From positions 5,274 to 69,273 of the forward strand of contig JAPOVT010000049.1 of the NCBI GenBank assembly GCA_026708015.1: a DNA stretch of 64,000 nt. Reading direction: 5' to 3'. The notes under the pieces were generated by a model. The model was not told where the DNA came from and made no database searches. It was given only the letters and a program-made list of their open reading frames with translations. This DNA is from a bacterium (GTDB taxonomy: Bacteria; Actinomycetota; Acidimicrobiia; Acidimicrobiales; Bin134). Positions 3,158 through 44,233 of this stretch are shown in pieces (the first letter of the stretch is position 1; each line of letters opens with the position of its first letter). The translations under genes and the position numbers were made by a program.

Positions 3158-3202
3158 CAAATGATGGCCAGATCATCGTGTTTGGTGACCGGAATTTCCG
3201 AC

Positions 3203-3208
3203 TATAAT
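3203..3208 (+). promoter_or_regulatory. candidate -10 hexamer TATAAT for a leaderless phd-vapC transcript
   Basis: A perfect TATAAT lies 8 nt before ATG 3217, with TTTGGT/TTGGTG 15-16 nt upstream. A small inverted repeat GGAAtTTCC (3191-3199) sits in the spacer. Confidence 0.35.
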
Positions 3209-3216
3209 TTAGGGCT

Positions 3217-3510
3217 ATGGAAAAAGTCGCTGCGGAGACTGCCAGGACTATGCCGGCCAATGAGTTCAAGACCCACTGCCTGCGGGTGATGGACGAGGTG
3301 GCCGAGACCGGCCAAGAGGTGATAGTCACCAAGCACCGCAAGCCAGTGGCGAAGCTCGTGCCGATGCCTGCACCCGGAGGTATCGTCGGCCTGTTCAAAG
3401 GTGTGATGACGGTCTCCGGCAATATCGACAAGCCTGCCTTCTCCCTAGATGAGTGGGAGGTCTTCTCCAACCCCGAGCAGGTGGTCAACCCCATGTCGAG
3501 AAAGGGATGA
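3217..3510 (+). CDS. Phd/YefM-type type II antitoxin
   Basis: 97 aa. NEFKTHCLRVMDEVAETGQEVIVTKHRKPVAKLVP is typical of prevent-host-death antitoxins. The stop overlaps the vapC start (ATGA). Confidence 0.8.
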   Translation: MEKVAAETARTMPANEFKTHCLRVMDEVAETGQEVIVTKHRKPVAKLVPMPAPGGIVGLFKGVMTVSGNIDKPAFSLDEWEVFSNPEQVVNPMSRKG

Positions 3511-3926
3511 TGCTCACGCTGGACACCAACGTGCTCATCGGCATCACCCTTGATGACGGCCGGGTTGGCTCTCTCTTCAGGGCTGAAGCAGAAAGTCTAG
3601 TCACCGAGCGCAGGCTGGCGGTGTCCTCGGCAGTGGTGCTGGAGATGGTGAGGCTCAACAGGGACGGAGTGATCTCAATGGGGATGCACCCACTGGTGTG
3701 GTGTCGGAATCTGTTGGGCACCGGTGTTGTGGACATTCCCGTCGATTACCGCATTGCTGCCGAAGCAGTGCTGTTGGCCGACAGGGGCTTTCATCCCGAC
3801 CCAATGGATCAGGTGATCGCAGCCACGGCCATTGTGTGCGGTCACGAACTCGCCACCTTTGACGAGGACATCATCTCGTGGGCAGAGAGCAATCCGGAAC
3901 TGCAATTGGTTGACCCCCGTCGATGA
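3507..3926 (+). CDS. vapC: PIN-domain ribonuclease toxin VapC
   Basis: Begins MMLTLDTNVLI (PIN first acidic residue), with a later conserved D in FDEDII. The in-frame ATG at 3507 overlaps the antitoxin stop. The ORF-track start at 3453 is probably too early. Confidence 0.8.
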   Translation: MMLTLDTNVLIGITLDDGRVGSLFRAEAESLVTERRLAVSSAVVLEMVRLNRDGVISMGMHPLVWCRNLLGTGVVDIPVDYRIAAEAVLLADRGFHPDPMDQVIAATAIVCGHELATFDEDIISWAESNPELQLVDPRR

Positions 3927-4001
3927 GCAATGGGGCCAATCCGCCCCGGCAGGTGAGGGGTTTGTCCGCCATTGGCTGACGCCGATGACTAGTTTGAGGA
4001 C

Positions 4002-23227: not shown

Positions 23228-23761
23228 ATGTTGGTATTGGATCCGACAGCATCTCCGCCGGCGGTTGACCCTGATCGGGGCCCCGACGCCGGTCCGCTGA
23301 CCGGCAAGCGGGTGGGCATCCGCTACGACCTCACCTGGCGCTCATTCTTGTGGACCACCGATGAGTGGGCCCGGAAGCTGGAGGCAGCCGGAGCCGAGGT
23401 GGTGCCGTGGTGCTCGGAGTCTCGCCAGGACGTCAAGCTCGAGGGCGCGGTGCTGGAAGAACTGGAGAGCTTTGCCACCGACGTCGACATCGCCATTGTC
23501 GGCTTGGGCAATTGAGGAAGCTGCACGTCCTGGACCGTCCACGACGCAGTTGCGGTGGCGGCCCAGGGCAAGACGGCGGTCGCCGTCGTAACCGAAGAGT
23601 TCGTGCCGCTGGCCGAGATCATGGCCCGCAACATGGAGCGGCCGGGCCTGCGGCTGTGCGTGCTGCCCTATCCGCTGGACACCCGTCCCGAACCAGAGGT
23701 GCGCCAGATCGCCCTAGATTTCTGGCAGCCGCTGTTGGATTCACTGGGAGTGCCCACGTAA
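23228..23761 (+). CDS. probable selenoprotein with U-G-S-C redox motif (UGA 23513-23515 read as Sec)
   Basis: Two track ORFs (23228-23515 and 23555-23761) are in one frame with no other stop. The sequence reads ...IAIVGLGN-TGA-GSCTSWTVHDA..., and a hairpin starts 6 nt after the UGA. Confidence 0.65.
23521..23549 (+). promoter_or_regulatory. candidate bacterial SECIS hairpin
   Basis: Hand fold: 21-23/47-49, 26-29/43-46 and 31-34/38-41 (last two digits of the 235xx coordinates) pair. There is a CA bulge, one C-C mismatch and a small apical loop CCG about 20 nt downstream of the UGA. Confidence 0.45.
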
Positions 23762-24808
23762 ATGGCGTCTGACGGCGGCGCCGTTCCCGACGGGCAGGTC
23801 GAGGCCCCAGACGACCCGACGGAGTTCATGGCCTGGGCGACGGCCCAAGGCTGGGGCGACGGCCTGCCGTTGATCCCGCCCACCCCCGAGGGGGTAGCTC
23901 GGTTCACTGCCGCCGCCGGTCGCCCAGCCGACTCGGTGCTGTTGGAAGTGCCGCCGGCCAATGCCTGGTGCACGGTGGAGAAATTGGCAATCAATGCCTG
24001 CATGGCCGGGGCCGCCCCCGAGGCCATGCCGCTGATGATGGCCGCGCTGGAGGCCATGGCCGAGCGACCGTTCGACCTGTTCGCCCTCAACACCACCACC
24101 AGCTCAGTGGTGCCCTGCCTGTTTGTGAACGGCCCGGCCCGCGACCGCCTGGACCTGCCCTATCAAGCCGGCTGTTTCGGCGGCGCCGCCGGGGCCGGAC
24201 CGGCCATCGGCCGGGCCATCCGGCTGGTCATGCGCAACGTGGGCGGCCAAGTGGCCGGTGAGACCTCCAAGTGTGTTTTGGGCCAGCCGGCCCGGGTGGT
24301 GGGTCTGGTGATGGGGGAGTGGGAGGAGCGTTCCCCGTGGCCGCCGCTGGCCGAGCGCCGGGGGGTGAGCGGTGACGCGGTGACCGTGTACGGCACCATC
24401 GGAACCATGGACATCGCAGACATCGCGGCCGACGACGGCCGTTCCCTGGCCTGGGTCATCGGCCAATCGCTGGCCTATGTGGGCACCAACGCCTACATCT
24501 CCCACTGGGGGGCCGAGGTCATGGTGGTGGTGCCCCCGCCGTGGGCGGACATGCTGGCCGCCGCCTATCCGACCATCGAAGACGTGCAAGAGGCCCTGTG
24601 GTCCAATGCCTGCCATCGGGTGGACGACTTTCCCGAGACCCATAAGAGGTGGTTGGCTGAGCGCGACCGGATCAGCCCCGACGGCACCGCCTACATCGTG
24701 GAGCAGCCCTCCGATGTGATCGTGATGTGCGCCGGCGGCCTGGGCAACCTCCACGCTGGCGGCCTCCACAACTTCGGCCCCACCCGGGCCATCACTCGGC
24801 CGTTCTGA
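23762..24808 (+). CDS. conserved hypothetical protein (348 aa), translationally coupled to the UGSC gene
   Basis: ATG immediately follows the upstream TAA (TAAATG). I recognise no family motif. Confidence 0.6.
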   Translation: MASDGGAVPDGQVEAPDDPTEFMAWATAQGWGDGLPLIPPTPEGVARFTAAAGRPADSVLLEVPPANAWCTVEKLAINACMAGAAPEAMPLMMAALEAMAERPFDLFALNTTTSSVVPCLFVNGPARDRLDLPYQAGCFGGAAGAGPAIGRAIRLVMRNVGGQVAGETSKCVLGQPARVVGLVMGEWEERSPWPPLAERRGVSGDAVTVYGTIGTMDIADIAADDGRSLAWVIGQSLAYVGTNAYISHWGAEVMVVVPPPWADMLAAAYPTIEDVQEALWSNACHRVDDFPETHKRWLAERDRISPDGTAYIVEQPSDVIVMCAGGLGNLHAGGLHNFGPTRAITRPF

Positions 24809-25458
24809 TGCCTGAGTCCGAGTCCATAGCGGTCACCGTGGTCGTGGTGGCCGGAGGCGACCACCCGACGCCTGAGGAGATTGCCCGTCTCCCCGCCGAC
24901 CCAGTAGTTGTGGCCGCCGACGCCGGCCTGGATCACGCCTTGGCCGCCGGGCTGACGGTGGCCGTAGCGGTCGGCGACATGGACTCGGTATCAACCGAAG
25001 CACTGGCCGCTGCCGAGGAGGCCGGAACCCGCATAGAGCGCCACCCCCCCGACAAAGACCAGACCGACTTGGAGTTAGCCCTCGAGTTGGCTGCCCGCCT
25101 GGCCGACCGGGTCATTGTCATCGGCGCCGGTGGCGGTCGCCTAGACCACCTCATCGGCAACCTGGCCGTGCTGGCCTCCCCCCAATGGTCCGGAGTCAAC
25201 ATCGAAGCCTGGCTAGGCAACGCTCAGGCCGTCGTCGTCCACGGCCACCGCACGCTCGACGTCGAACCCGGTGCCACCGTCTCCCTATTCGCCCTAGGCA
25301 GCCCCGCCCGAGTAACGACCACCGGGCTGAACTGGCCGCTGCACGACGAAATCTTGGACCCCCTCACCAGCCGAGGAGTAAGCAACCTCGTCACCGAACC
25401 CTTACCCCAACTCTCAGTTTCCGAAGGCGTGGTTGTAGCGATAATCCCTCACGGGTAG
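24808..25458 (+). CDS. thiamine pyrophosphokinase
   Basis: The start ATG overlaps the upstream TGA (TGATG). Shows VAADAGLDHA...GDMDS...PPDKDQTDLELAL...GAGGGRLDH, the typical TPK catalytic region. The track start at 24727 is too early. Confidence 0.7.
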   Translation: MPESESIAVTVVVVAGGDHPTPEEIARLPADPVVVAADAGLDHALAAGLTVAVAVGDMDSVSTEALAAAEEAGTRIERHPPDKDQTDLELALELAARLADRVIVIGAGGGRLDHLIGNLAVLASPQWSGVNIEAWLGNAQAVVVHGHRTLDVEPGATVSLFALGSPARVTTTGLNWPLHDEILDPLTSRGVSNLVTEPLPQLSVSEGVVVAIIPHG

Positions 25459-28553: not shown

Positions 28554-30872
28554 ATGACCGATCAGCGCCAGCAGGAGCACTATCCGGGGTTTGAGGGCAC
28601 GGTAGGGAAGATCATGGCCACCTCCGAGTCCTGGTGGCCGCCCCGCCCGACTCCGCCGGCCGGCGCCCCCAACATCGTGGTCGTGCTGGCCGATGACCTG
28701 GGCTACTCCGATGTGAGCTGCTACGGCTCGGAGATCGCCACCCCGGCTATCGACGAATTGGCCGCCACCGGTGTCCGCTATACCAACTTCCATGTCACCC
28801 CGCTGTGCTCACCCACCCGGGCCGCGCTGTTGACTGGGCTCAACTCCCATCACGTTGGGGTGGGGTTCGTGGCCAACGCCGATCCCGGCTTTCCCGGCTA
28901 TGCCAGCGAGCTGCCCCACAACCAGAGCACGCTGGCTGAGATGCTCAAGGCCAGCGGCTACGCCACCATGGCGGTGGGCAAGTGGCACCTGTGCAAGGAA
29001 ACCGACTTGTCGATCGCCGGCGACACCCATTCGTGGCCGCTCCAGCGGGGCTTCGACCAGTTCTATGGATTCCTGGAGGCACTCACCAACTTCCATCACC
29101 CCCACCTGATGTACGAGGGCAACAGCCCTATCGACATCGCCGAATACCCCGAGGGGTACTACCTCACCGACGACCTCACCGACCGGGCCTGCCGCATGAT
29201 CCGCGAGGTCAAAGCCACCGACCCCCAAAAGCCGTTCTTCCTCTATTACGCCCATGGCGCAGTCCACGCCCCGTTGCACGCCAAGCCGGAGGACATTGCC
29301 CGCCACCGAGGTAACTACGACAGGGGTTGGGACCAGCTCCGAGAAGAGCGCCTGGCCCGCCAGATCGACCTCGGGGTGGTGCCACCGGGAACCGAGCTGC
29401 CCCCCCGGAACTTCGAGCCCGACGAGGACGTGGCCGCGTGGGACAGCTACCCGGAGGGTGAGCGCCGGGTGATGGCCCGCTACATGGAGGTGTACGCCGC
29501 CATGGTGGAGTCGATCGACGACAGCGTGGCCCGCATCCGGGCCGAGCTGGAGGCCATCGGCCAGCTCGACAACACCATCTTCGTGTTTACCAGCGACAAC
29601 GGGGCGTCCCGAGAGGGACGGGCCCAGGGAACCATCTCCTATTTCACCTACAGCAACCCCGGAGCGATGTCGTCGGCGGCAGTGGGCGACGAGGAGATGG
29701 ACGCTCTTGAGGCAATCGGCGGCCCCACCACCTGGCCCCATTACCCCCGGGGCTGGGCCATGGCCTGCAATACCCCCTTCCGGCTCTACAAGATCACCTC
29801 TTACCGGGGCGGCCACTCGGTGCCGTTCGTGCTGTCGTGGCCGGCCCGCACCGCGGCGGTGGGAGGGGAGCTGCGCCACCAGTACGCCCACATCATCGAC
29901 CTGCTGCCCACTCTGTCGGAGCTGGTGGGTGTGGGCATCCCCACCGAGCGCAACGGGCTGGCGTCGGAGAACCCCGACGGGGTGTCGTTCGCGGCCTCGC
30001 TGCACAATCCCGACGTCGCGTCCGAGCGCACTGAGCAGTACTACGAGTGCATCGGCCACCGGGCCTACTACCGGGACGGCTGGGCCGCGGCCGCGTTCCA
30101 CGAGTTCATGACCCCGTTCAGCACCGACCGGTGGGAGCTGTTCAATCTGGCCGAGGACATCAACGAACGCATCGACTTGGCTGAGGCCGAGCCCGAGAAG
30201 CTGGCCGAGCTGGTGGAGGCCTGGGAGGAGGCCGCCTGGCGCAACCGGGTGTACCCCCTCGACGAGGGCACCGGCCTGTACCGCCTGCTCCGTCCCGCTG
30301 AGCACGAGCTGCTTACCCGGTCGCTCACGATTTTGCCCGGAACCCCCACCGTGGAGCGCTACCGGGCCTCCCGGGTCATCTCGGGGGGCAACTTCACCGT
30401 CACCGTCGAGCTCGACCACCGTCCCGGCGACCAGGGCGTGCTGGTGTCCCACGGCGGACAGGCGTCGGGCTACGTGCTGTACATCGAGGACGGAGCTCTG
30501 CACTTCGAGGTGAACAGCGGCGGCCAGCCCATGGTGTTCGAACCCATGGCGCTGCCGGGGAAGTGCCGGCAGATCGTTCTGGACGTAAGGGCCCCCGGCG
30601 GCCGTATCTGGAACATAACGGTGAGCACCGACGGCCGTACCGGGATAACCGCCACAGACATCCCCCAGATCTACGGCTTCATCCCCTGGGAGGGCATAGA
30701 CGTGGGTGTCGACCGCCGATCCCCGGTGTCATGGCGGCTCCACCAGCGCCACGGTTCCTTCCCCTACACCGGCACCATCCACCAAGTGACCTACGTCCCC
30801 GGCCCCCCCGCCCCCGACACCGAAGAAGTCCGCCTCGCCGAACTCCGCGAAATCGGAATGGGCTTGGAATAG
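28554..30872 (+). CDS. arylsulfatase (AtsA-like, formylglycine-dependent)
   Basis: Start [13 protein letters not shown] after GGGAGGA. Sulfatase signature [12 protein letters not shown] ~250-aa C-terminal beta-rich extension. Confidence 0.9.
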
Positions 30873-30903
30873 CACTAACCTCCCAGCCGACTCAGGAGGA
30901 CAG

Positions 30904-33228
30904 ATGACTGATCATCGCCAGCAGGAGCACTATCCCGGGTTCGGGGGCAAGATCGGAAAGATCATCTCCACCTCGGAGTCGTGGTGGCCGCCCCGCCCCA
31001 CGCCCGCTCCCGAGGCCCCCAACATCGTAATCGTGCTGGCCGACGACCTGGGCTATTCCGATCTGGGCTGCTACGGCTCGGAGATCGCCACTCCGGCCAT
31101 CGACGCACTGGCCGACAGAGGAGTCCGCTACACCAACTTCCACGTGACCCCGCTGTGCTCGCCCACCCGCGCCGCCCTGTTGACCGGGCTCAACGCCCAC
31201 GCCGCCGGCATGGGCTTCACCGCCAACACCGACCCCGGCTTTCCCGGCTACGCCAGCGAGCTGCCTCGCAACCAGTCGTCTTTGGCCGAGATTTTGAGCG
31301 CCCACGGCTACGCCACCATGGCGGTGGGCAAGTGGCACCTGTGTCGGGAGGCCGACTTGTCGATTGCCGGCGACACCCATTCGTGGCCGCTCCAGCGGGG
31401 CTTCGACCAGTTCTACGGGTTCTTGGAGGCCCTCACCGATTTCCACTTCCCCCACCAACTATTCGAGGGCAACAACCCCGTCCATATCGACCAGTATCCC
31501 GAGGGCTACTACCTCACCGACGACCTCACCGACCGGGCCTGCCGCATGATCCGCGAGGTCAAGACCACCGACCCCGACAAGCCGCTCTTCTTGTACTACG
31601 CCCACGGGGCGGTCCACGCCCCGCTGCACGCCAAGGCCGAGGACATCGCCCGCCATCGGGGCAACTACGACAAGGGCTGGGATCAATTGAGAGAAGAGCG
31701 GCTCGCCCGCCAGAAGGAACTGGGCGTGGTTCCCTCCGATGCCGAGCTGCCGCCCCGCAACCCCGAGCCCAACGAGGAGGTGCGGGCCTGGGACAGCTAC
31801 GCCGAGCCCGACCGCAGGGTCATGGCCCGCTATATGGAGGTGTACGCCGCCATGGTGGAGTCCGTAGACGAGAGCGTGGCCCGCATTAGCGCTGAGCTCG
31901 AGGCCCTGGGCCAGCTCGACAACACCATCTTCATCTTCACCAGCGACAACGGTGCATCCCGCGAGGGGCGGGCCCAGGGAAGCACCTCGTACTTCTCCCA
32001 CAGCGGAACCGGCGCCAAGCCTTCTCCCGACGTGAGTGAGTTCGAGATAGAGGCCCTTGAGGCCGACGAGATCGGTGGTCCCACCACTTGGCCCCACTAT
32101 CCCCGGGGTTGGGCCATGGCCTGCAATACCCCCTTTCGGCTCTACAAGATCACCGCACACCGGGGCGGCCACTCGGTGCCGTTCGTGGTCTCGTGGCCCG
32201 CCCGCCTCTCGGGGATCGGCGGAGAGCTGCGCCACCAGTACACCCATATCACCGACCTGCTGCCCACCCTGGCCGAGATGCTCGACCTTGAGGTGCCCAC
32301 CCAGCGCAACGGGCAGGACTCAGCCGATCTCAACGGGGTGTCGTTTGCTGACTCGCTGGACGATCCCGATGCACCCTCTGACCACACCGAGCAGTACATC
32401 GAGTGCATCGGCCACCGGGGCTTCTACCGGGACGGCTGGTCGACGGCGGTGTTCCACGAGTTCCAGACTCCGTTCAGCGCCGACCGCTGGGAGCTGTTCA
32501 ACCTCGAAGAGGACTTCAACGAGCGGTTCGACCTGGCCGATGCCGAGCCCGAAAAGCTGGCCGAGATGGTTGAAGGCTGGGAGGAGGCAGCGTGGCGCAA
32601 CCAGGTCTTTCCCCTCGACGACCACGCCGGGCTGTTCCGAATCGTCAAGCCGCCCGAACACGAGAAGCTCACCCGGGTGCTTCGGATTCTGCCTGGTTCG
32701 CCCACCGTGGAGCGGGTTCGGTCAGCCCGCATCATTGCCAACGGCAACTTCACCATCACCGTCGACCTGCACCACAGCCCTGACGACCAAGGCGTTTTGG
32801 TGGCCCATGGCAGCCAGGCCGCGGGCTATGTGCTCTACATCGAAGACAACGCCCTGCACTTTGAGGTGAACAGCGGGGGCCACTATCTGATCGCCGACCC
32901 CATGGACCTGCCGGGGGAGTGCCGACAGATCGAAGCAGACGTGCAAGCCCCCGGCGGCCGCATCTGGAATGTCACGGTGAGCGCCGACGGGAAGGAGGGG
33001 ATGACCCTCACAGACATCCCCCAGATGTTCGGATTCCTGCCCTGGCAGGGCATCGACGCCGGCATCAACCGCCGATCCCCAGTGTCATGGCAGCTCTACC
33101 AGCGCCACGGCGCCTTCCCCTACACCGGCACCCTCCACCATGTCACCTACACCCCCGGCCCCCCCGCCCCCGACACCGACGAAGTCCGCCTCGCCGAATA
33201 CCGCGAAATCGGCATGGCCCTGGAGTAG
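30904..33228 (+). CDS. arylsulfatase, tandem paralog of the preceding gene
   Basis: 774 aa, collinear with 28554-30872 along its whole length. Signature [11 protein letters not shown]. Confidence 0.9.
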   Translation: MTDHRQQEHYPGFGGKIGKIISTSESWWPPRPTPAPEAPNIVIVLADDLGYSDLGCYGSEIATPAIDALADRGVRYTNFHVTPLCSPTRAALLTGLNAHAAGMGFTANTDPGFPGYASELPRNQSSLAEILSAHGYATMAVGKWHLCREADLSIAGDTHSWPLQRGFDQFYGFLEALTDFHFPHQLFEGNNPVHIDQYPEGYYLTDDLTDRACRMIREVKTTDPDKPLFLYYAHGAVHAPLHAKAEDIARHRGNYDKGWDQLREERLARQKELGVVPSDAELPPRNPEPNEEVRAWDSYAEPDRRVMARYMEVYAAMVESVDESVARISAELEALGQLDNTIFIFTSDNGASREGRAQGSTSYFSHSGTGAKPSPDVSEFEIEALEADEIGGPTTWPHYPRGWAMACNTPFRLYKITAHRGGHSVPFVVSWPARLSGIGGELRHQYTHITDLLPTLAEMLDLEVPTQRNGQDSADLNGVSFADSLDDPDAPSDHTEQYIECIGHRGFYRDGWSTAVFHEFQTPFSADRWELFNLEEDFNERFDLADAEPEKLAEMVEGWEEAAWRNQVFPLDDHAGLFRIVKPPEHEKLTRVLRILPGSPTVERVRSARIIANGNFTITVDLHHSPDDQGVLVAHGSQAAGYVLYIEDNALHFEVNSGGHYLIADPMDLPGECRQIEADVQAPGGRIWNVTVSADGKEGMTLTDIPQMFGFLPWQGIDAGINRRSPVSWQLYQRHGAFPYTGTLHHVTYTPGPPAPDTDEVRLAEYREIGMALE

Positions 33229-42335: not shown

Positions 42336-44233
42336 TCAGTTGGCGTGGGCCATCCAGGTGGCGTACATCTCGGCATAGTGACCGCCTTGGGCCACCAGCT
42401 CATCGTGGGTGCCGATCTCGGTGATCCTCCCGTCTTCCACCACCGCGATCCGATCGGCCCGCATGGCGGTGGCCAGTCGGTGGGCGATGATGATGGCGGT
42501 CCGCCCCTCCAACACCACGTCTAGAGCGGCCTCGATCTTCGACTCCGATCGCAAGTCCAGATTGGAGGTGGCCTCGTCCAACACCAGCACCCGGGGCCGG
42601 GCCAGAAACGCCCGGGCCAGCGCCAAGAGCTGCCGCTCACCAGCCGACAACGACGCCCCTCGCTCGTGGACTTGGGAGTTCACGTCATCGGGCAGCCGCT
42701 CCAAGAGCTCGGTCAACCCAACTGCCCGACAGGCCTCCAGCACCTCGGCCATCGATGCCTCAGGCCGGGCGAAGGCCACGTTGTCGCGGATCGAGCCGTA
42801 GAACAAGAACGGCTCCTGGGGCACCACGCCCAATTGCCGACGCAGCGAAGCCAGTTTCACCGTGCGCAGGTCGTGGCCGTCGATGCAGACCATTCCCTGC
42901 TGGGGGTCGTAGAACCGGGCGATGAGCTTGGCCACCGTGGACTTGCCCGCCCCAGTGGGGCCCACCACCGCCAGGCTCTCGCCCGGTGCCAGCCGCAAGC
43001 TCACGTCGTGCAGCACCGGGGTGTTGTCCTCATAGCCGAAGCTCACCTGGTCGAGAGTGATCTCTCCCTCGATGAGGGGCAGTTCCACGGCATCAGAAGC
43101 CTCCATGACCGAGGGCTCGTTCATCAGCACCTCGCGCAGTTTCTTGGCCGAGGCCTGCCCCTGCTGGTAGCCGTTGTAGAGCTGCACGAGCTGCTGGATG
43201 GGGGCGAAGAAGAAGGTCAGATACAGCACGAAAGCGGTGAGCTCACCGGGGGTGAGGCTCCCGTTGATCACCATGGTCCCGCCGATCACCACCAACAGGG
43301 CCTGGCCGATGATCACAATGGCCTCAGTGGCGGGGGCGTAGATGGACGCGGCCCGCACACCGGCCAAATTGGCATCCTTGTGCCGCCCCACCACGTTGTT
43401 GTGGCGGACAACGTTGTGGCGTCGGCGGTTGTGGGCGGTGATCACCCGGATGCCGGCGAGGCTCTCCTGCAAATCGGCCAGCACATCGGCAATGCGGTCT
43501 CGAACCAGCCCGTAGTACAGGTTGGACACTCTGCGGAACCAGATGCTGAGCAGGAACGTGCCCGGCACCACGATCACCAGGGTCAGCACCGCCAGCAGCG
43601 GGTTCAGATAGAACAGCACGCCGGTGATCACCAAGAGCACCAGGGATTGCACTGCGAAGTTCACCAGGCCTTCTTGGAACAGCACGGTCAGGGCTTCGAT
43701 GTCGCTGGTCATGCGGGTCATCAGCACGCCCGCCTTCTCCCTGGTGAAGAAGTCCAGCGACAGCCGCTGGTAGTGGGAGAACACTCGCATGCGCAGGGCG
43801 TACATAAGCCGCTCGCCCAACTTGCCGGTGTAGCGAATGCGCAAAGACGAGCTGAATGCATGGGCGACCACTGTGCTCAAGAACACGGCGGCCACCACCA
43901 AGAGCACCTGTAGATTGCCTGAGCTGACACCGTGGTCGATGCCGATCTGGGCCAGCAACGGGCCCGACTGCATCATGGCCGACTCGATCACCACCAAAAG
44001 CAGCGCCACGGCCAGCTGGCGCCGGAACGGCCACAGCATCGTGCGCAGAGTGAGCGGCGGGTCGGCCGGTTGGCGGTGGCTGAAGTCGACATCTACCGGG
44101 GGATATTCGGGCTCCTTCCGCAGCACCTCCTCGACCTGAACCCGAAGATTGCCGGGCACGCCGGCATGGGGGAGCCCGGCGTCGCGGGCCGCGCTCTGGG
44201 CCTGGGGCCCGCCGAAGTACCCACCCCAGCCCA

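Follow-up and report, generated by a model that had tools for sequence, protein, structure and literature searches.

A UGSC-family gene with an in-frame UGA, most likely a selenocysteine codon, in a sponge-associated actinobacterium

Does an in-frame UGA end a gene, or does it specify an amino acid? The question is raised by a stretch of 64,000 nucleotides (nt) from an acidimicrobial metagenome-assembled genome (MAG; contig JAPOVT010000049.1 of assembly GCA_026708015.1, positions 5,274 to 69,273), hereafter the window, in which two open reading frames (ORFs) on the plus strand, 23228-23515 and 23555-23761, lie in a common frame with a single stop between them, the TGA at 23513-23515. A preliminary description, made from the letters of the window, had joined the two ORFs into one selenoprotein gene in which the UGA encodes selenocysteine (Sec, U). 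We consider it very probable that this locus encodes one 177-amino-acid protein of the UGSC family, that Sec is inserted by means of a selenocysteine insertion sequence (SECIS) hairpin, that the product is a redox protein with a flavodoxin-like fold, and that it has a partner encoded directly downstream. The elements concerned are as follows.

23228-23761, plus strand: probable UGSC-family selenoprotein gene, 177 codons followed by a TAA stop, with Sec at codon 96
23513-23515, plus strand: predicted selenocysteine codon, an in-frame UGA, the U of G-L-G-N-U-G-S-C
23527-23569, plus strand: SECIS-like hairpin within the coding sequence, 17 base pairs (bp) in four helical segments, starting 11 nt past the UGA
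23548-23551, plus strand: apical loop AGUU of the fold, 32 nt after the UGA
23762-24808, plus strand: partner gene, encoding a 348-amino-acid protein of unassigned family and fold, whose ATG abuts the stop of the UGSC gene (TAAATG)

A reading frame that continues past the UGA

Frame and translation agree with the gene structure first proposed. The UGA is the only stop between the two ORFs, and reading through it yields a 177-residue protein containing ...DIAIVGLGN-U-GSCTSWTVHDAVAVAAQ..., in which the stretch spanning residue 96 is ...IAIVGLGN-U-GSCTSWTVHDAVAVAAQGK. The second ORF, as had also been noted, possesses no credible start of its own: its GTG at 23555 is the Val codon of a conserved ...VAVAA... 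segment and lies inside the 3' arm of the hairpin. In public annotation, GenBank and RefSeq alike, the gene nevertheless appears as two separate hypothetical proteins, 95 and 68 amino acids long (MCY4135576.1, MCY4135577.1; WP_420620580.1), and the same split is found in all records examined, which include GenBank MAGs, RefSeq entries of Candidatus Poriferisocius and another Acidimicrobiia MAG.

For profile searches, Cys was put in place of the internal stop. The resulting protein matches the Pfam family PF24696 (UGSC family) with 104.5 bits and an E-value of 8.8e-30, well past the gathering threshold of 25 bits, and the match extends across the TGA, from residue 3 to residue 173 of 177 (profile positions 2-170 of 172). 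The NCBIfam family named in the preliminary description, NF041046 (UGSC_fam, an equivalog model), is matched as well, but over residues 74-171 only and with 68.3 bits, below the cutoff of 125 bits for membership. Seven other Sec forms and three Cys forms from the same clade reach 56-91 bits each against this model, all below the cutoff. By sequence score, the protein is classed as a relative rather than a member of the NF041046 family, with its whole clade outside the equivalog model, which is probably why the Prokaryotic Genome Annotation Pipeline leaves the gene split into two hypothetical proteins.

Among the 622 homologues obtained in a protein search, the top matches span 90-100% of the query at 44-55% identity, and homologues at 43-53% identity extend over its whole length. 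All 25 aligned full-length homologues are continuous through the site and carry Cys in the column of the UGA, within an invariant N-C-G-S-C; the U/C-G-S-C tetrapeptide follows the end of a G-L-G-N strand, and N95, G97, S98 and C99 are invariant. The UGSC-containing protein is moreover an established computational selenoprotein family. The Global Ocean Sampling (GOS) survey yielded 255 Sec and 21 Cys sequences and counts UGSC among the abundant marine selenoproteins (PMC2398784), the family is known from 26 sequenced organisms (PMC5029168), and a 2026 review still describes its function as uncharacterised (PMC13188914). The Pfam match, the Cys at the aligned column and this documented history all uphold the earlier assignment to the UGSC family of selenoproteins, with Sec at a site where the family has Sec or Cys. 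The family is not new, and the gene is, with high probability, an additional, mis-annotated member of it that encodes selenocysteine; with the NCBIfam model not reaching this clade, current selenoproteome counts for Acidimicrobiia are likely underestimates. In several Cys-form homologues of about 270-280 amino acids (P0010, P0011, P0028, P0034, P0042 and P0084), the UGSC domain is preceded by an N-terminal NifU-like domain (PF01106) with its own conserved Cys; these may correspond to the 'Unknown_1' fusion of the 2008 GOS paper (PMC2398784).

The UGA is a recurrent feature of this gene. At least eight contigs, assembled independently from different samples and with different assemblers, contain the identical 95-amino-acid upstream ORF; they represent two haplotypes, distinguished by four sites, and the TGA is retained in each. 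Its 90%-identity cluster contains 93 distinct sequences, and the 15 members listed are all 95 amino acids long. The TGA form is also carried by a complete 3.45-Mb genome of Candidatus Poriferisocius, of long-read style (ERZ25072258), and by the unrelated Acidimicrobiia MAG GCA_027494165.1, that is, by both Acidimicrobiia genomes checked. Relatives of the 95-amino-acid ORF are named Acidimicrobiia bacterium or Candidatus Poriferisocius sp. (lineage Actinomycetota; Acidimicrobiia; Ca. Hopanoidivoransaceae), and the host is a sponge-associated actinobacterium. The preliminary remark that selenoproteins are uncommon in Actinobacteria is doubtful for Acidimicrobiia, given the TGA form in both of these genomes and the fact that the named close relatives of the partner protein come, every one, from this class.

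Metagenomes were scanned with a degenerate DNA pattern for [G/A]-N-TGA-G-S-C-T-x-W-T, which gave at least 120 loci; 119 of the 120 matches listed are genuine, so that at least 119 further TGA-form UGSC genes exist, and these share with the window gene the signature U-GSCTSWTVHD..V...GKTAVAVVT.EFE. The pattern used to scan GTDB required Cys and returned Cys forms only, at 80 loci that served as a negative control; the site codon is TGC or TGT in 80 of 80, as the pattern demanded. In the TGA forms, nucleotide diversity at the three codon positions is 0.20/0.19/0.44 after the TGA versus 0.32/0.38/0.51 before it, and is thus tighter downstream; 99 of 108 Sec forms retain the LPYP motif, which lies downstream of the TGA, and the ORFs terminate 79-91 codons past the TGA. 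The downstream half thus shows coding evolution across the whole TGA-carrying clade, from which we conclude that translation continues past the UGA. The codon is not reassigned in this organism, since it acts as the ordinary stop of 19 of the 34 long coding-like ORFs in the window, where it is the commonest stop. A UGA aligned with Cys and a frame conserved downstream of it, as expected of a bacterial selenoprotein gene, are thus present. One Sec form (locus L145, contig Ga0209283_10246214) has 210 codons after the TGA instead of the usual 79-91; either fusion to the partner gene or loss of a stop codon could account for the long frame.

The hairpin downstream of the UGA is under selection as RNA

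The preliminary description had folded a hairpin by hand at 23521-23549, with its apex about 20 nt from the UGA, and had taken it for the SECIS element. This structure forms, but no better than in dinucleotide-shuffled sequences (fold of 23513-23560 at -17.3 kcal/mol, z = -0.41, equalled by 62 of 200 shuffles), and was rejected. Support goes instead to the hairpin at 23527-23569, the loop of which starts 32 nt after the UGA. Its paired segments are interrupted by unpaired A23534, U23538 and GA23543-23544 on the 5' side and by C23562 on the 3' side; it has a folding energy of -27.6 kcal/mol, accounts for 84% of the ensemble and is more stable than any of 200 dinucleotide shuffles (z = -3.65), and in the wider context 23490-23600 it is again the centroid structure. 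Folding the Sec forms one by one had pointed to this hairpin, longer than the hand-folded one, with the W-T-V-H-D codons as its 5' arm.

That selection acts on the RNA itself at 23527-23569, beyond the needs of the protein, is supported by five independent tests. In a synonymous-recoding control, which holds protein and codon usage fixed, none of 100 recodings of the window sequence was as stable as the original (z = -3.44); over the Sec forms the mean z is -2.22 (n = 97, Wilcoxon p = 1e-17), as against -0.08 for the Cys forms, which show no excess of stability (n = 80, p = 0.59). Sec forms also exceed Cys forms when compared with plain shuffles (p = 9e-9). Covariation was assessed in 31 Sec forms in the register of the window. 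Here 78.6% of cells can pair, versus 38-60% in slid registers, and the covariation score of 0.196, versus 0.141 +/- 0.012, was reached by none of 500 shuffles; at pair 36-60, 13 sequences have G-C and 11 have C-G, both columns being third codon positions at which the changes are synonymous. A structural covariance model outscored a sequence-only model built on the same alignment by a median of 9.5 bits, in 73 of 82 held-out Sec loci (p = 1.5e-12), and the highest score of any Cys-form locus under the structural model is 32.8 bits. Finally, the gene of the complete Poriferisocius genome differs from that of the window at 81 of 534 positions (15%), 51 of them third positions, and at none of the 63 nt that follow the TGA (P ~3e-5, or ~8e-4 when third positions only are counted), while the distant MAG GCA_027494165.1 has a differing sequence with an equivalent fold of -29.3 kcal/mol.

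The hairpin was also compared with the bacterial SECIS (bSECIS) model, as given in PMC13188914 (Fig. 2): an apical loop of 3-9 nt, a G in the first two loop positions, a spacing of 16-37 nt and a minimum free energy of at most -7.5 kcal/mol. The AGUU loop, the 32-nt spacing and the energy of -27.6 kcal/mol all fall within these limits; the upper stem of 4-16 bp is obtained only if a 2-nt bulge is tolerated, the helix next to the loop being 3 bp long. No Rfam family matched the window at its gathering threshold. A family-specific recoding element is now defined and statistically supported, and can be used to find and annotate other members.

Selenocysteine and other readings of the UGA

Selenocysteine is the most likely reading of the in-frame UGA, and the mechanism that we propose runs as follows. 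The UGA at 23513-23515 occupies the place of the family's conserved first Cys in C-G-S-C; translation proceeds past it, as the coding evolution of the downstream half shows; and the stable hairpin at 23527-23569 is preserved as RNA over and above the demands of the protein sequence. By analogy with the established bacterial mechanism, SelB carrying Sec-tRNA(Sec) would bind this hairpin as a SECIS and insert selenocysteine. The U-x-x-C pair, judging from the predicted structure, most likely acts as a redox centre that alternates between selenol/thiol and selenosulfide states, and gene order suggests that the UGSC protein probably works with the 348-amino-acid downstream protein, a partner that accompanies Sec and Cys forms almost everywhere.

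Several points weigh against this account. Searches of the 64-kb window, of the 10 kb flanking it on either side and of 1.5 Mb of related loci turned up no selA, selB, selD or tRNA-Sec (tblastn with E. coli SelA, SelB and SelD on the window and the 1.5 Mb; no tRNA-Sec in the window, whose single tRNA is Val, or in 30 loci), and the presence of Sec machinery in this genome is assumed. In the sponge-symbiont survey of PMC5649159 (Table S4), the Acidimicrobiia bin134 (Sva0996 group, 64.3% GC, 90% complete), the GC content of which is similar to that of the window, has SelD without SelA or SelB, a pattern that reflects either incompleteness of the bin or an 'orphan SelD' organism, and that would bear on the present gene should the bin prove to belong to the lineage of the window. 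On the RNA side, the simple bSECIS criteria fit 58% of Sec forms and also 42% of Cys forms, and as such a weak discriminator were not used alone as evidence. RNAalifold alone, applied to the 31-sequence alignment, did not recover the long hairpin, owing to a 3' arm whose register varies from one sub-group of Sec forms to the next; its sole output was a 4-bp GAGG/CCUC helix that takes in the UGA. Furthermore, the redox role and the partnership are read only from motif position, predicted structure and gene adjacency, and, according to the 2026 review, no UGSC member has been studied experimentally and nearly all selenoproteins of this kind are bioinformatic identifications (PMC13188914).

Two of the items just mentioned call for a brief description in their own right. 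The GAGG/CCUC helix pairs GAGG (GA of the UGA and GG of the Gly codon) with CCUC (Thr-Ser codons), at columns 14-17/26-29 of alignment A2, corresponding to 23514-23517/23526-23529 of the window; it is possible in most Sec forms, but with ACG in place of ACC the window can form only three of the four pairs. Codon conservation may account for this helix, or it may be an additional minor structural element. In the tblastn screen, the lone SelB-like match (locus L148) turned out to be TypA, not SelB.

Of the alternatives to selenocysteine, the one that survives best is that the UGA is decoded as another residue, either Cys, brought by a Sec-like tRNA delivered by SelB, or the amino acid of a suppressor tRNA; the hairpin would in that case assist the recoding. 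Read-through and a selected hairpin would be expected under this scheme too, and no result identifies the inserted residue; the Sec genes missing from the loci searched, and the bin134 pattern of SelD without SelA or SelB (PMC5649159), point the same way. We nevertheless hold it improbable. UGSC is a long-recognised Sec/Cys family in which TGA forms are dominant in some environments (PMC2398784); were Cys the product, TGC would serve without a constrained 43-nt hairpin; and a general suppressor is hard to reconcile with UGA being the commonest ordinary stop of the window. Related organisms, moreover, have the machinery: bins of sponge symbionts are enriched in SelA and SelB, and among them the Acidimicrobiia bin76 carries SelA, SelB and SelD (PMC5649159 Table S4), and a preprint reports selA/B/C/D in all 84 complete genomes of Actinomarina, a member of the class Acidimicrobiia.

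Also very unlikely, in our estimation, is that the annotation is correct and the TGA a true stop, either between two small genes of 95 and 68 amino acids or within a gene inactivated by a nonsense mutation. Databases do list two hypothetical proteins, gene callers split the locus likewise on every contig, and the score against the NCBIfam UGSC model is below cutoff (68.3 versus 125 bits). This low score, however, is clade-wide and extends to Cys forms that are obviously full length, while a single Pfam domain (PF24696) covers both ORFs and the homologues read straight through, with Cys at this position. The alleged second start, the GTG at 23555, belongs to the 3' arm of the hairpin and to the conserved valine segment described above, and a nonsense mutation would not persist at one codon in at least 119 diverged sequences, with purifying selection downstream and a conserved end. 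The last possibility, that a one-base error in a metagenome-assembled sequence made TGC or TGT into TGA, is effectively refuted by the independent assemblies, the same TGA being found in at least eight contigs of differing samples and assemblers and in two haplotypes, as well as in the long-read-style complete genome and in at least 119 other metagenome sequences.

No further selenoprotein gene was found in the window. The sole other coding-like in-frame TGA, at 42336-42338 on the minus strand, was considered and rejected as a stop between two ordinary ATP-binding cassette (ABC) transporter genes: it ends a gene for an ABC permease-ATPase fusion, and the GTG-ATG start of a second ABC ATPase follows in the same frame.

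Predicted fold, partner gene and known systems

The UGSC protein was modelled by AlphaFold2 with the homologue alignment (predicted local distance difference test, pLDDT, 93.4; predicted template modelling score, pTM, 0.88). The model has five beta-alpha units, and Sec96 lies between strand 88-94 and helix 98-111. Against the Protein Data Bank (PDB), Foldseek returned flavodoxin-like folds only (NQO1, MdaB, flavodoxin, WrbA and ArsH; template modelling score, TM, ~0.5; E ~1e-4), and none of its top 50 PDB matches is a thioredoxin-fold protein. Sequence and profile searches of the PDB gave nothing significant, and Pfam searches at E-values up to 10 gave no remote family. A thioredoxin-like fold had been suggested for UGSC in the 2008 paper (PMC2398784), and the preliminary description had likewise spoken of a thioredoxin-fold-like redox motif. 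The placement of the motif stands, the U-x-x-C following a strand at the N-terminus of a helix, but the predicted fold is flavodoxin-like and not thioredoxin-like; U/CxxC in this position may work like a thioredoxin-type redox motif outside the thioredoxin fold.

The partner gene is a constant neighbour. Homologues of its product occur at 78 of 80 Cys-form loci and at 94 of 119 Sec-form loci, many of the others being truncated contigs. The partner has more than 1,500 homologues, of which the named ones are all 'hypothetical' and carry no precomputed Pfam domain; the protein itself matches neither Pfam nor NCBIfam, even at permissive thresholds (Pfam E up to 10), and sequence and profile searches gave no PDB relative. 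Its AlphaFold2 model (pLDDT 81.8, pTM 0.85) has no structural match above a TM of ~0.27; assignments as a class I fumarate hydratase or a Toblerone-fold hydrolase were dismissed, with Foldseek TM values of only ~0.2-0.27. It has many invariant motifs, among them a Cys in G-C-F-G-G. In the portions of the UGSC family literature available to us we found no mention of this 348-amino-acid protein, which is a candidate for a new family definition. A tentative idea, and one that we think rather less likely than its opposite, is that the UGSC protein and its neighbour form a previously undescribed two-component selenoenzyme, in which the Sec-x-x-Cys of UGSC would pass reducing equivalents to the partner or resolve a covalent intermediate on it. 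If true, this would be a new enzyme system in Acidimicrobiia, other Actinomycetota and Proteobacteria. The partner and the flavodoxin-like fold offer the first concrete handles on the function of the UGSC family, abundant as it is in ocean surveys.

Further downstream, a thiamine-diphosphokinase-like gene (216 amino acids, 24808-25458, plus strand) starts on the last base of the partner's stop codon, an overlap that suggests translational coupling; this neighbour is lineage-specific, being present at one of 199 other loci. Elsewhere in the window, three large arylsulfatase genes stand in a row (772, 774 and ~494 amino acids; 28554-33228 on the plus strand and the following minus-strand gene), with an amidohydrolase adjoining. 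A PhdYeFM antitoxin/PIN-domain toxin pair, mapped from loci L213-L215 to ~3200-3930 on the plus strand, comes after a gene for a 602-amino-acid flavin monooxygenase-like protein. In L213 and L214, a HicB-like antitoxin gene lies upstream of the flavin monooxygenase-like gene; its position is near the window's tRNA-Val, and it may be absent from the window.

The system described here can be set beside several known ones. With flavodoxin-like oxidoreductases, the AlphaFold2 model of the UGSC protein shares a three-layer alpha/beta/alpha sandwich of five beta-alpha units. The likeness is generic (TM ~0.5, 9-18% identity, root mean square deviation 5-10 A), and the UGSC protein differs from NQO1, MdaB, WrbA, ArsH and flavodoxin in that no flavin-binding motif is established in it and in that U/CxxC is not a feature of those enzymes. 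The hairpin shares with bacterial SECIS elements of the E. coli fdhF type its placement within the coding sequence shortly after the UGA, with no sequence resemblance to the E. coli elements established for 23527-23569; relative to the bSECIS model, it is long (17 bp) and has its loop close to the far end of the permitted spacing. The UxxC selenoproteins GrdB and PrdB (Pfam PF07355) show no sequence relationship to the UGSC protein at Pfam E-values up to 10. What they have in common with it is that they are small redox selenoproteins with U-x-x-C and partner subunits, the partner here being a single 348-amino-acid protein of unassigned family. The UGSC family itself (Zhang & Gladyshev 2008, PMC2398784) has the same U/C-G-S-C motif, the same size class of ~150-190 amino acids and the same alternation of Sec and Cys at one column, and the clade of the window differs from the family as currently modelled in lying outside NF041046 and in going unannotated.

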